5,802 bases of DNA, taken from the IMG/VR virus record IMGVR_UViG_2663763413_000005, one strand, 5' to 3'. The notes below the pieces were generated by a model. The model was not told the origin of the DNA, searched no databases, and saw only the letters and a program-made list of their open reading frames with translations. This DNA is from a virus. Lineage: Duplodnaviria; Heunggongvirae; Uroviricota; Caudoviricetes. The translations under genes were made by a program, and so were the position numbers. This document shows positions 303 through 5,802 of this stretch, piece after piece (the first letter of the stretch is position 1; each line of letters starts with the position of its first letter).

Positions 303-542
303 ATGAAATCACGCGCAGCAGTCGCCTTCGGGCCGGGTTTACCCCTTGAAATTGTTGAAATTGATGTGGCACCGCCGAAGAAAGGTGAAGTGCTGGTGAA
401 AATCAGTCACACCGGGGTATGCCATACCGATGCCTACACGCTTTCCGGTGATGATCCGGAAGGTCTGTTCCCGGTGGTGCTCGACCATGAAGGTGCCGGG
501 GTGGTGGTTGAGGTCGGTGAGGGCGTGACCAGTGTGAAACCT
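303..542 (+). pseudogene. frmA: S-(hydroxymethyl)glutathione dehydrogenase / class III alcohol dehydrogenase, N-terminal ~80 codons only (3'-truncated remnant)
   Basis: ATG at 303 is preceded by AGAGGA (288-293). Translation [80 protein letters not shown] matches the N-terminus of E. coli FrmA/AdhC as I recall it. The match ends at about 542; the frame then runs on to 635 through unrelated Ala/Phe-rich sequence that is the antisense of the stf remnant. The track ORF start at 234 is an upstream alternative start. Confidence 0.7.
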
Positions 543-1000
543 GCGCTGTTAGCTGCGTTCGTTTCTGAGGTTTTCGCCGCGTTCTTCGATGATGCCGCTG
601 CTGTTTCGGATTTCTTTGCCGCCGCTGCGCTCTGAGAGGCGGCTTCAGCGTTGCGTGCCGCTTCTTCCACCATTTCCTCAAAACGACGCAATGCCTCCGG
701 CATGACATCATCTTCCGTCATGGCACCGAGAAAATCATTCAGCGTCCCCGGCTTAGAATCTTCATACACGGTGATGGTCCCGGCATGTGAAGGCGGAAAA
801 CCTTCAACCAGCAGGATAACGCTGTACTGGCCATACTCAACATCCATGCTGTAACGCCCGGCTTCATCCGGATTTTCAGAGGCCACCGTGTTCACCAGTA
901 CCGTGGTGCTGTTACGCTTTGCCTTCAGTTGAATAGTGCAGTTCTGTATTGGTTTTCCCGCACCATCTTTCAGCACACCTGAGATTTTTACTGCTGCCAT
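540..1000 (-). pseudogene. stf: Side tail fibre protein Stf, N-terminal ~150 codons only (3'-truncated); the ORF reads on into antisense frmA-like sequence to a stop at 434
   Basis: ATG at 998-1000 (minus) with GGAG five nt upstream. Translation MAAVKISGVLKDGAGKPIQNCTIQLKAKRNSTTVLVNTVASENPDEAGRYSMDVEYGQYSVILLVEGFPPSHAGTITVYEDSKPGTLNDFLGAMTEDD… matches the N-terminus of lambda Stf (orf401), followed by the Ala/Ser-rich repeat region. Similarity stops around …[12 protein letters not shown] (about 540-555). The remaining 33 codons ([17 protein letters not shown]…) are the reverse complement of the frmA-like gene. Confidence 0.75.
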
Positions 1001-1011
1001 ATCCACTCCAC

Positions 1012-1038
1012 AAAAAAGCCCGCCTGAACCGGCGGGCT
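1012..1038 (-). terminator. Rho-independent terminator downstream of lom (minus strand)
   Basis: Minus-strand reading is AGCCCGCC-GGTTCA-GGCGGGCT followed by TTTTTTG: an 8-bp GC-rich stem (plus 1017-1024 / 1031-1038), 6-nt loop and T-tract (plus 1012-1017), placed between the lom stop (1065) and the stf start (1000). Confidence 0.6.
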
Positions 1039-1064
1039 GTCATAACACTGTGTTACCTGGCTAA

Positions 1065-1664
1065 TCAGAACTTATAACCGACACCCACGATGAAACCGTC
1101 AGTGCGCCAGTCACCACTGCCGGAGCCTTCATAAGCAATATCAATGGCCACGGATTCGGTCGGGTTAAACTGCACGCCAGCTCCCCACGCCAGAGACGTG
1201 TTGCTGTGGCGACCGTCATCACTTCCGGTCAGCACATCGTGCGTTTTCCCCTTGTTGTCAGTTACGCGGAGGTAATCCCCGGAAAAAGTCGAAACACGGC
1301 TGTAAGCCATACCCGCCATCGCATACGCGCTGAACCATTCATTCACGCGCACAGACGGCCCCGCCATCACGCTGAACCAGCGGTTACGCACGGAATCTTT
1401 ATGCCAGCGGGTATCGCTGTAACGGGTCAGCTGACGATTCTTGTATCCTGCATAACTGAATGACGTCACCAGCCCCAGCGTGTCCGTAAATTCATAACGG
1501 TATTTCACGTTAATGCCCTTCAGGTCATCACTGCCTGGCATATCAGTATGGGTCTGAAGATACCCGGCGCTTAGTGTGGACTGATGCTCTGCTGCGCTCG
1601 CTGGCGTACCAGCGGCAACCAGCCAGACTACTGCGGACAGAATAACAGCACATAATTTACGCAT
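1065..1664 (-). CDS. lom: Lom outer-membrane protein (Ail/Lom/OmpX/PagC family 8-stranded beta-barrel), intact
   Basis: 199-aa ORF with ATG at 1662-1664 and GAGAGG Shine-Dalgarno 6-7 nt upstream. Signal-peptide-like N-terminus MRKLCAVILSAVVWLVAAGTPASA, C-terminal …GFIVGVGYKF ending in an aromatic residue as in outer-membrane beta-barrels. Near-identical over most of its length to lambda Lom as I recall it. Confidence 0.92.
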   Translation of the reverse strand: MRKLCAVILSAVVWLVAAGTPASAAEHQSTLSAGYLQTHTDMPGSDDLKGINVKYRYEFTDTLGLVTSFSYAGYKNRQLTRYSDTRWHKDSVRNRWFSVMAGPSVRVNEWFSAYAMAGMAYSRVSTFSGDYLRVTDNKGKTHDVLTGSDDGRHSNTSLAWGAGVQFNPTESVAIDIAYEGSGSGDWRTDGFIVGVGYKF

Positions 1665-1688
1665 AATTACCTCTCGCTTTTCTGCAAT

Positions 1689-1712
1689 AAAAAAGGCGTC
1701 ATTTCTGACGCC
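1689..1712 (-). terminator. Rho-independent terminator between J and lom (tJ-like), minus strand
   Basis: Minus-strand reading is GGCGTCA-GAAA-TGACGCC followed by TTTTTTATTG: a 7-bp stem (plus 1695-1701 / 1706-1712), 4-nt loop and T-tract (plus 1689-1694), lying between the J stop (1732) and the lom start (1664). Confidence 0.7.
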
Positions 1713-2828
1713 CGTATTGGGGTTATAAAATTCAGCTGATACTGATGCCTGCAGTGGCTTTCTTCATCACAACAACCAGCAAATCGCTGATACTTGCTGT
1801 GGGATACCAACCATTTACCCACCATGCTGATACAGAAAACTCCAGTGTCATTACACCACTGCCTGCAGGCATATCAATAACACCCGTGTAAATCAGAGTA
1901 TTATCCAGAGCCGTTCGGTTATAAATTTCAGCCCCGTTTTTCTTCACTATCAGGCGGCATGACGAATAAGTATCGCTATTCTCCCGCTCATGTCTGGCAC
2001 CGCAGAAAGCCACCGCTGGAATAACAATTTGCCGGTCAAACGACTGATCGTCATAAACCCTGACGGTAATAGTCCCTGATGGCCACCGCTCCGGTGCACG
2101 GGAGTCCCGGGGGAAAGCTTTGCCCACTGTTTTAACGAGATCGCCTTCAATCTGGTTCGCGGACAGTTTTCCCAGAACCCGACAGTTCTCGTTAATCGTG
2201 ACATTATTGAGCGTCCCGGAGTTCGCATTCACGTTACCGCTGATATCGGCATTTTTCGCCGTCAGCCGCCCGTCCGGTGTCAGGGAAAATACCGGAGGAT
2301 TGCCGCCACTGGTAATGGTGGGAGCCGTCAGATACTTCAGGAACACTTCGTTCATGAATATCTGGTTGCCCTGCGCCACAAACATCGGCGTTTCATTCCC
2401 GTTTGCCGGGTCAATAAACGCGATACGGTTAGCGGCAACCAGGAACTGGCTCAGTTTGCCTTCCTCCGTATCCTCCATACTAAGGCCAAGCCCCGCGACA
2501 TAATGCCTGCCGTCTTCGGTCTGCTCAATTTTGACGCCCCACATGGCATTCCATTTATCGTTGGCGTCCTTCCACTCTTTCGAAAACTCCTCCAGTTTGC
2601 TGGCGTTATCCTCCGTCAGCTCGACTTTTTCCAGCAGCTCCTTGCCGAGATGGGATTCGGTTATCTGGCCTTTGAAAAAATCCAGGTAACCTTCCGCATC
2701 ATCGCTCGGCTGACCAACAGCCTCCACGAATGCCGATTTGCCAACGGTGTTCACACTGCGGATATAAAAGTAATAATCATGGCCCGGTTTGATATTGATA
2801 CTGGCAGCTATCCAGTACAGCGCCGTAC

Positions 2829-2873
2829 CAAGATAGCGGGCTGTGGTCTCAAGATAGCGGGCTGTGGTCTCAA
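2829..2873. repeat. Perfect 21-bp tandem duplication (unit AGATAGCGGGCTGTGGTCTCA at 2831-2851 and 2852-2872)
   Basis: Read directly from the sequence. In frame within J, duplicating the peptide ETTARYL. Confidence 0.9.
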
Positions 2874-3210
2874 CCTGCCTGATATCGGTAATCCGCTTTT
2901 CCGAGAACCAGAACTCAAACTGTACCGTCGGATCATAAACCGCAAGATGCGGCGTGGCAGTTATCTGAAAATAGCCCGGCGTCAGCTCAATCCGCGACGG
3001 CGCTGCCGGTGCGGCAATCCGGAACGATACCGATGCCGGATCGCCCTGCTGTCCCCACGCATTTACCGCCCGGACCGTCAGCGTGTAACGCCCCAGCGCC
3101 AGTTGCCTGAAGCGGTATGTGGTTTCCGTCGTCCTGGCCGTGCTGACCAGCCGCTCACTGCCGTCATCCGCTGCCACGGTCAGGCGAAGCATAAAGCTCA
3201 CCCCCTTCAC

Positions 3211-3269
3211 CACCTTCGGCGTATCCCAGCGCGCCAGCACCTTCGGCGTATCCCAGCGCGCCAGCACCT
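3211..3269. repeat. Perfect 27-bp tandem duplication (unit ACCTTCGGCGTATCCCAGCGCGCCAGC at 3212-3238 and 3239-3265)
   Basis: Read directly from the sequence. In frame within J, duplicating the peptide LARWDTPKV. Confidence 0.9.
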
Positions 3270-3541
3270 GATACTCCCCGCTGTCTGAGGTGACTTCGGC
3301 AGTCAGGTGCTGCACCGCAGGCGGCGTGACACCATTCACCGTGCCGCTCTGGTCGCCGTCAAAGTGCGCCCCGTTATCCACGATGGCCTCTTTTTCCGGC
3401 ACATGCTGCACGGCGGTGATGGCATACGTGCCGTCGTCGTTCTCACGGATACTCACGCAGCGGAACAGGCGCTGGCGCAGCGTCGGCAGCTTCAGCCCCC
3501 ATACGCTGTATTCAGCAACACCGTCAGGAACACGGCTCACT

Positions 3542-3555
3542 TTTACCTTTACCTT
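3542..3555. repeat. Short 6-bp tandem repeat (TTTACC x2 plus partial), encoding a KVKVKV run in J
   Basis: Period-6 identity over 3542-3555. Protein reads [12 protein letters not shown], where lambda J as recalled has [10 protein letters not shown]. Confidence 0.6.
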
Positions 3556-3652
3556 CACGCCGTCGGTGACGGACTGAACCTCCACGCTGACCGGATTGCC
3601 ACTTCCGTCAACCAGACTTATCAGCGTGGTACCGGAGGATGGCAGCGTGATT

Positions 3653-4225
3653 TCACGGTCGAGCGTCAGCGTCCGGGTCTGGCTGTTCACCGCCAGCCAC
3701 GCGCCCGCCGATGCTGATACCCGCATAGTCATCATCACAGATTTCAATGACATCCCCCGGTACATGGCGAAGCCCTTCCGCACCCACGCTGAAGTCCACG
3801 GTCTGCGTTTCCAGCAGTTCCGTTTTAATCAGCCACAGCCCGGCGCGGTGCGCCTGCCCCCGGCTGGTACAGCCAAAGGCATCCATCTTCGTGACGTTAC
3901 GACCGTAACGGGCAATGGCCTGCGTATCTTCAACAAGCTCTGTCGCCGTCTCCCAGCCGTTGTTCGGGTCAATCCAGTTCACCTCAACGGCATTATGGCG
4001 GTCCTTCAGGGCGCTGAAGCTGTAGCGGAACGGCGCGCCATCATCCGGCATCACCACATTACTGCGGTTATAGGTCCACACCTTATCTGATGGTCGGTCC
4101 TGCACGAACGTCAGCGTCTGCCCGTTCCATACCGGCATACAGCGCATCGCCGAGCAGAAATCACTGAGCACATCCCACGCCTTGCGCTGTGTGGTCAGCC
4201 AGGCATTACAGGTGATGCGCGGCCT
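3653..4225 (-). pseudogene. J: J fragment 2 (middle), in the +1 frame relative to fragment 1
   Basis: Part of track ORF 3653..4330. Translation from PRITCNAWLTTQRKAWDVLSDFCSAMRCMPVWNGQTLTFVQDRPSDK… through …[22 protein letters not shown] matches lambda J, then runs out of frame ([14 protein letters not shown], stop at 3653). Confidence 0.8.
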
Positions 4226-4247
4226 CATTACAGGTGATGCGCGGCTC
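4204..4247. repeat. Near-tandem direct duplication: 20-bp unit CATTACAGGTGATGCGCGGC twice (4204-4223, 4226-4245) separated by CT; net 22-bp insertion
   Basis: Read directly from the sequence. Located inside J and coincides with the first frame break. Confidence 0.9.
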
Positions 4248-5204
4248 CGTGCCACCAAAGCCATCCGGCACCGACTGGTCGCAATTCTGGCCGATGACAT
4301 ACAGCGCCCATTTGTCCACATCCGCCGCACCGAGACGCTTCCCCATGCCGTAGCGCGGATGGGTCAGCATATCCCACAGACACCAGGCCATGTTGTTGCT
4401 GTATGCTGGCTTAAACGTTCCGTCCCAGATACCGCTGTATTGTCGCGTCTGCGGGTTATAGTTCGACGGCACCTGCAGAATGCGCCCGCGAAGATGATAA
4501 TTACGACTCACCTGCTGGCTGCCGAACTGCTCCGAGTCCACCTGTACGCTGACCAGTGCCGTGTTCGGGTAGCACTGTTTCACATCGATGATTTCGGTGT
4601 ATGACGACCAGAGCGTTTTGTTCTGCAGCTGGTCTGTGGTGCTGTCCGGCGTCATCCTGCGCATCCGGATATTAAACGGGCGCGGCGGCAGGTTATCCAC
4701 CACCACCGAGGCCAGATACTGCGAGGTGGTTTTGCCTTTAATGGTGATGTCTTTTTCCGTCACCCAGCCACCGTTACGCTGTATCTGAACCAGCAGGCGG
4801 ACTTCCGACGGATTCCGGTCCCCCTTTGAGGTGGTTTCCACCAGTGCCTGCACACCGAAGGTAAAGCGCAGACGGTCGATGTTTGCAGACGTGATGGTCC
4901 GGGTAATCGGCGTGTCGTACTTCACTTCCGTACCCAGCACCGTCTCGGAGCCGGAGGATTCAAATCCCTCCGGCGGTGTCTGCTCCTGCTCACCTGCCCG
5001 GAACACCACCGTGACACCGGAGATATTGGTATTCCCCTCACTGTCCAGCACCGGCGTACTGTTCAGCAGCACACTTTTTAATCCGTCCACCGGACCTTCA
5101 ATCGGCCCTTCACTGATGGCGTCTATCACGCTCAGCATCTGGGATGATTTCAGGTTGTCCTTCGCTTCGCGCGGGGTATGCCCCTTACTGCTGCCTTTAC
5201 CCAT
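4206..5204 (-). pseudogene. J: J fragment 1 (N-terminal, 332 codons), ending at a premature TAA created by the 22-bp duplication
   Basis: Track ORF 4206..5204. Translation matches the lambda J N-terminus up to …GGTEPRITCN, then reads EAAHHL and stops. Confidence 0.85.
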
Positions 5205-5226
5205 TCCTCACGCTCCAGAAACGACA

Positions 5227-5246
5227 AAACCGCCCTGAGGCGGTTT
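5227..5246 (-). other. Inverted repeat / hairpin in the I-J intergenic region (possible weak terminator or RNA structure)
   Basis: Plus strand AAACCGCC-CTGA-GGCGGTTT (8-bp stem, 4-nt loop). On the minus strand it is followed by TTTTGTCGTTTCT, which is only moderately U-rich, then the J Shine-Dalgarno sequence. Confidence 0.3.
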
Positions 5247-5264
5247 CACACAAAACATTCTGCA

Positions 5265-5802
5265 TCAACGACCAATCACCACAACCTGACCACCATCTCC
5301 TTCATCTGCCGTGCTGATCTCCTGCGAAATCACCCGTGACCCCACGCGCATTTCACCGTACAGAACCGGCAGAACATTGCCCTGGGCAACCATGTTATCC
5401 AGTGAGGAGAAATAGGTGTTCTGTTTGCCGTTATCCGTTGTCTGTGTACGGGGAGTTCTGGCTTTCGGTGCCAGCATCTGCGCCACACCACCGAGCACCA
5501 TACTGGCCCCCGCACCATACATTCCTGTAATTGCGGCAGCCCCCAACCAACCTGCAGGGTTCCACCATGCCACCGCAATCAGCGCCGCCCCCAGCACACT
5601 GCCTGAAAAAGACCGCCACTTTTGGCTCCCGCCAGACGCGGCACAATGTGGATCACGGCACCATTTGCCAGCGGTTCATTAAGACGGGCGGATAATTCAG
5701 TTTCACCTGCATCACGCCCGGCAATACGTACCTGATACCAGCCGTCGCTCAGTTTCTGACGAAACGCCGGAAGCTGTGTGGTCAGCGCCCGGACTGCTTC
5801 GG
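5265..5802 (-). pseudogene. I: Tail assembly protein I, 5' end outside the window, with a frame break near 5598-5606
   Basis: From the window end, one minus-strand frame reads EAVRALTTQLPAFRQKLSDGWYQVRIAGRDAGETELSARLNEPLANGAVIHIVPRLAGAKSGGLFQ and then hits TGA within a few codons. The I-like sequence continues in a different frame as VLGAALIAVAWWNPAGWLGAAAITGMYGAGASMVLGGVAQMLAPKARTPR…VVIGR (track ORF 5265..5597). Both halves match lambda I as recalled. Confidence 0.8.

Follow-up and report, generated by a model that had tools for sequence, protein, structure and literature searches.

Does the near-tandem duplication that interrupts the tail gene J of a lambdoid prophage record a mutation of the bacterium carrying it, or did it enter the sequence on the way to the database? 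The window, i.e., the whole stretch of 5,802 nt that we analyzed, is the entire 5802-bp contig AOQJ01000313.1 of the draft assembly GCA_000397385.1, as established by an exact look-up of its 332-aa product. Both ends of the contig are intragenic: the left one lies in tet(D) and the right one in the tail assembly gene I.

The gene interrupted by the duplication is the lambdoid tail-tip or host-specificity gene J (gpJ, TipJ family). The tail genes follow the lambdoid order I-J-lom-stf, as seen in the ORFs of the window and in the collinear annotation of Escherichia coli UPEC132. The insertion-free equivalent, the J protein of UPEC132, matches the Pfam domains FNIII-A_GpJ, Phage-tail_3, Ig_J, Ig_J_second, Phage_Tail_Tip and Ig_GpJ_C with E-values from 1e-35 to 1e-43, and the precomputed Pfam matches on the J fragments of the window agree with this domain set. 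In place of a single intact J ORF of ~1130 aa, the window has ORFs of 332, 225 and 683 aa (Table 1), the last of which retains Ig_J, Ig_J_second, Phage_Tail_Tip and Ig_GpJ_C.

Table 1. Features of the window (positions count from the first nucleotide of the contig; strand as given)
Feature	Position	Strand	Remarks
Junction of tet(D)/adhC fragment (1-541) to prophage (542-5802)	541..542	.	Blunt and chimeric; microhomology 0 nt
ORF with J fragment 3, 683 aa	1732..3783	-	J-homologous from 3696 to 1732, residues ~496-1131
21-nt perfect tandem duplication	2829..2849	-	In frame, adds ETTARYL; 3 nt of flanking microhomology
27-nt perfect tandem duplication	3211..3237	-	In frame, adds LARWDTPKV; 5 nt of flanking microhomology
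6-nt perfect tandem duplication	3542..3547	-	In frame, adds KV; 2 nt of flanking microhomology
ORF with J fragment 2, 225 aa	3653..4330	-	J-homologous from 4245 to 3698, ~residues 321-495; Phage-tail_3
1-nt insertion, C to CC	3697..3697	-	Perfect duplication; second J frameshift, separates the 225-aa and 683-aa ORFs
Repeat copy A	4204..4223	-	Downstream copy in the coding sense; source of the premature stop
Premature TAA	4206..4208	-	Inside copy A; end of J fragment 1
J fragment 1, 332 aa	4206..5204	-	J residues 1-326 plus 6 out-of-frame residues; FNIII-A_GpJ
Filler CT (AG on the coding strand), 2 nt	4224..4225	-	Between the copies; unlike either flank of the single-copy sequence
Repeat copy B	4226..4245	-	Upstream copy in the coding sense
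Tail assembly gene I	5265..5802	-	Frameshifted; contig ends 13 nt before the start codon
2-nt insertion CT	5599..5600	-	Not a duplication; frameshifts gene I

At the boundary of the first two fragments, the 20-nt unit CATTACAGGTGATGCGCGGC is present twice, the copies being 100% identical and separated by the dinucleotide CT, exactly as the original prediction had described. The Tandem Repeats Finder (TRF) program run on the window reports a period of 22 and 1.9 copies (1.91) for this repeat at 4204-4245, and the chance expectation for exact 20-nt repeats at most 100 nt apart in 5.8 kb is ~5e-7. On the minus strand, the upstream frame reads GAT GGC TTT GGT GGC ACG GAG CCG CGC ATC ACC TGT AAT GAG GCC GCG CAT CAC CTG TAA, which translates to DGFGGTEPRITCNEAAHHL followed by the stop; from GGC ACG GAG to the TAA, this same frame gives ...GTEPRITCNEAAHHL and the stop, i.e., ...GGTEPRITCN-EAAHHL-stop. 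The second frame of J reads ...MRPRITCNAWLTTQRK (also given as ...PRITCNAWLTTQRK), and the intact reference J has ...GGTEPRITCNAWLTTQRK across the same site. Thus, the earlier account, wherein the PRITCN codons are repeated and the upstream frame runs through EAAHHL into a stop while J resumes in another frame, proved correct to the codon. The insertion sits after J codon 326, just ahead of the Phage-tail_3 domain (residues 330-496), and the shift that it causes in the minus-strand J frame splits the 332-aa from the 225-aa ORF.

The description of this event as a 22-bp duplication holds for its length but not for its structure. While 22 nt were indeed added, they comprise a 20-nt copy and two unmatched bases: the relatives read ...GCGCGGC followed directly by TCCGTG at the filler site, where a clean 22-nt head-to-tail copy would yield TC, whereas the window has CT. 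Further, the event lacks the flanking direct repeat that marks slipped-strand duplications, the microhomology extending over 0 nt. We rejected the possibility of a hairpin or quasi-palindrome having promoted the duplication, as none was found at the site: the DNA folds with -16.1 kcal/mol, while its shuffled versions average -18.5 (z = +1.0). A templated origin of the CT fillers was also rejected: the 11-kb UPEC132 locus offers only 6-10-nt matches, the best being a 10-mer 2.9 kb away, which we judged to be roughly at chance level.

We then compared the repeat region with its relatives, using a query of 451 nt around the repeat that matched 4,480 of 5,426 complete E. coli genomes and 218 phage records. 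The best-matching genomes and phages align over 429 nt and are identical to the window except for a 22-nt gap. As these best matches lack the 22 nt, the single copy is the rule and it is the window that carries an insertion. The single copy anticipated for reference J genes is therefore borne out, and relatives with both copies in frame, which would have told against an insertion, did not turn up: the two-copy state was found in none of the best-matching records from the 4,480 genomes (~15,000 J copies) and the 218 phage records. This distribution also bears on a functional interpretation, namely that the expression of J is controlled by a programmed frameshift or by a repeat that switches reversibly (phase variation). 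Recombination between direct repeats of 20 nt could in principle restore the single copy. However, in addition to the absence of the two-copy state among those best-matching records, a second, independent frameshift lies 528 nt downstream, so that a reverting repeat would not restore J. We accordingly give this interpretation almost no credence and consider it excluded, the comparative data having effectively refuted it.

The second frameshift belongs to a wider set of lesions. The closest relatives spanning positions 542-5802 of the window are UPEC132 and ~10 other genomes, and a global alignment of this segment with UPEC132 (5.26 kb) showed just one substitution along with six insertions, of 21, 27, 6, 1, 22 and 2 nt, and no deletions; the 22-nt gap is placed at 4204-4225 in this alignment. 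The segment 542-2828 shows zero differences from UPEC132. It includes the gene lom, coding for an Ail/Lom outer-membrane beta-barrel (1065-1664, minus strand), which is intact and has the same sequence as in UPEC132. The sole substitution is at position 5690 (G vs T), in the 5' part of gene I. Deletion of all five J insertions in silico produced a J of 1131 aa identical to the UPEC132 protein WP_000515309.1, whereas deletion of the 22 nt alone left a J that still stops at codon 510, on account of the 1-nt insertion at 3697, which shifts the frame as well. Thus, the proposal that the 22-bp insertion separates the 332-aa from the 225-aa ORF is right as to the cause of this split, but the insertion is not the sole lesion, there being four more in J and one in I: the 22-nt event is one of six lesions and accounts for one of the two frame breaks in J. 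With respect to lambda gpJ/TipJ, the likeness lies in the restored 1131-aa ORF with its six domains and in the I-J-lom-stf order, whereas the gene in the window differs in being spread over three reading frames and in bearing three in-frame insertions.

In their anatomy, the six insertions are not alike. The 21-, 27- and 6-nt events are exact head-to-tail copies bordered by short direct repeats, and the microhomology at these three perfect duplications (3, 5 and 2 nt) exceeds chance (Fisher P = 0.002). All three are multiples of three in length, which has a chance of 1/27, though this is a post hoc observation. The 2-nt insertion in gene I consists of CT, the same dinucleotide as the filler of the 22-nt event, a coincidence of ~1 in 16. 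The CT common to the two events could be a shared technical signature.

None of these lesions was encountered elsewhere. The 42-nt duplication junction GCGCGGCCTCATTAC has no exact match in the species representatives of genome_contigs, the IMG/VR viral_contigs or the JGI metagenome_contigs. The 21-, 27- and 6-nt insertions are absent from the 5,426 complete E. coli genomes, the best matches falling short of the query by exactly 54 nt. The three J fragment proteins are each recorded on this contig alone among ~15 billion proteins, including those from Logan assemblies of public read runs. The duplication was seen in this assembly alone and in none of its close relatives, a pattern that characterizes false duplications.

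Could the bacterium nevertheless have acquired the duplication in vivo? Under this explanation, a cryptic lambdoid prophage undergoing decay lost the function of J to a slippage or template-switch duplication, with the other insertions representing independent decay. Spontaneous mutations classically include short tandem duplications with short direct repeats at their flanks, and the 21-, 27- and 6-nt events carry such microhomology. The prophage is also defective in other respects: gene I is frameshifted, the stf region is cut at 541/542 by the join with tet(D)/adhC, and the stf of UPEC132 is itself annotated as a partial pseudogene. Moreover, the sequence is that of a deposited GenBank record. 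An out-of-frame short duplication that truncates an ORF, with single-copy relatives, is indeed what slipped-strand duplication in a gene of a cryptic lambdoid prophage looks like. The 22-nt event departs from such pseudogenization in its 2-nt filler and in the lack of a flanking direct repeat, and to our knowledge E. coli has no classical NHEJ pathway that could add filler bases. Natural decay likewise does not predict five more insertions with almost no substitutions, and a spontaneous origin is at odds with the lesions having no counterpart in any other genome, phage, metagenome contig or protein record searched.

The spectrum of the differences also speaks against a spontaneous origin. Mutation-accumulation studies of bacteria find substitutions to be 4-23 fold more frequent than small indels; the indels cluster in simple repeats, with deletions usually at least as frequent as insertions (PMC6330053). 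Taking the insertion share as 0.1 per difference, the probability of at least 6 insertions among 7 differences is ~6e-6, and it remains at 4e-4 even if every indel is taken to be an insertion. The combination of six insertions, no deletions and one substitution is far outside the known bacterial spectra and therefore very unlikely as a product of natural E. coli mutation. A density of ~1 insertion per kb could presumably not hold genome-wide in a viable cell. On these grounds, we hold an in vivo mutation of the ordinary kind to be unlikely, and the attribution of the repeat to replication slippage or a repair scar in the original prediction appears doubtful, given a 2-nt untemplated filler, the lack of flanking microhomology and a small, chimeric draft contig with insertions only.

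The chimeric nature of the contig is apparent at its left end. Positions 1-541 contain the 3' end of tet(D) (1-208) and the 5' part of the class III alcohol dehydrogenase gene adhC (303-541), and are 99.8% identical to the IS26-bounded tet(D)/adhC modules found on many plasmids. At position 484, the window has a private G-to-A change relative to the 15 top tet(D)/adhC matches listed (all 99.8%), the position having been confirmed against one plasmid; this change converts GHE, which we take to be the conserved motif of zinc alcohol dehydrogenases, to DHE in an adhC that is truncated here anyway. Both parental sequences diverge exactly at 541/542, where the stf region forms the prophage side of the join. 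IS26 flanks the tet(D) module in the one plasmid examined, but we rejected an IS26-mediated origin of the join, as no IS element was found at 541/542 or elsewhere in the window and the break falls inside adhC. The join is thus either a misassembly or an unusual illegitimate recombination. The contig that bears the 22-nt event also bears this blunt plasmid/prophage join and five further insertions; whether these are errors or real changes is the very question at issue, which their presence by itself does not settle.

Alternatively, the changes might be the real products of a local mutational process, e.g., a low-processivity polymerase switching templates at microhomologies, or repeated rounds of error-prone break repair. 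Such a process would have left several small duplications clustered in the J-I segment, perhaps in the same event as the fusion of the prophage to tet(D). All six insertions fall within 2829-5600 and none within 542-2828 (P = 0.03), the perfect duplications show microhomology, and the illegitimate junction at 541/542 is nearby. However, the clustering statistic is weak, and this junction, which lacks microhomology, is separated from the nearest insertion by 2.3 kb. The k-mers of the fillers match nearby sequence at chance level only, and the site offers no hairpin or quasi-palindrome that could have driven such switching. Further, we know of no precedent for such an insertion cluster in E. coli. 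We therefore see a local process of this kind as very improbable. The same applies to its most specific form, in which all six insertions are real and constitute a 'duplication shower' produced by microhomology-mediated template switching in J-I, perhaps tied to the tet(D) fusion: we would accept it only as a long shot.

The explanation that we prefer is that the 22-nt duplication in the deposited record is an assembly or library artefact rather than a mutation of the bacterium, and we consider this to be probable. An artefact was named in the original prediction among the outcomes that would overturn it, and it fits the data better than a natural mutation. A technical origin is favored because the contig is a small one from a fragmented draft, the join at 541/542 is blunt, CT is untemplated at two sites—the 22-nt and the 2-nt events, simple slippage not giving such filler—and the lesions are private. 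What we observed directly is the anatomy of the repeat and its effects on the frame, relatives with a single copy, an insertion-only spectrum, a chimeric join and lesions unique to this contig; the technical cause is what we infer from them. The 22-nt insertion may have arisen during the building of the small draft contig AOQJ01000313.1 in one of two ways: either locally, by a mis-join or a consensus error at a point where reads or sub-contigs were brought together, or by an in vitro template-switch chimera that ended up in a consensus of thin coverage. The five other private insertions and the blunt fusion between tet(D)/adhC and the prophage would have the same origin.

Among the documented classes of assembly error are false tandem duplications at contig boundaries (10.1101/2020.05.22.110833). 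The present case resembles the 'homotype' false duplications of that class in having a private, head-to-tail stretch inside the assembled sequence, on a contig with an unexplained blunt join. However, the documented 'homotype' cases are about as long as a read, come from long-read assemblies and usually flank a gap (10.1101/2020.05.22.110833), whereas the units here are of 1-27 nt, a gap is absent and three of them show microhomology. In the gap-closing and assembly literature that we examined, we found no account of small duplications at joins. Some observations run against an artefact. The microhomology of 3, 5 and 2 nt is a hallmark of polymerase slippage or template switching, be it in vivo or in vitro at library preparation; the perfect duplications are therefore unlike a plain end-to-end concatenation of overlapping contigs. 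That all three of them are in frame also counts on this side. Further, the base-level accuracy is otherwise high, with one substitution in 5.26 kb and one in 541 nt, and the consensus is thus not generally noisy. As for particular technical sources, concatenation across De Bruijn k-1 overlaps is unsupported as the specific mechanism, since no single value of k would explain lengths of 1, 6, 20, 21 and 27, and since there is microhomology. For the AG (CT) filler, an origin in residual 454/Ion Torrent key bases (TCAG) is a speculation on which we do not rely.

The significance of the locus depends on which of these explanations holds. If the duplication is an artefact, as we think probable, its message is one of caution only: the contig would be unfit for calling J or I as pseudogenes, for inferring a plasmid-prophage fusion or for deriving indel spectra. 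A genuine 22-nt duplication would be an ordinary inactivating lesion in a defective prophage, of a kind common in E. coli and of little consequence. If all six insertions are real, they would point to a localized, duplication-prone process acting on a host-range gene; were this to take the form of a 'duplication shower', it would be a mutational process undescribed for E. coli, with the potential to quickly remodel a host-range gene via in-frame duplications.
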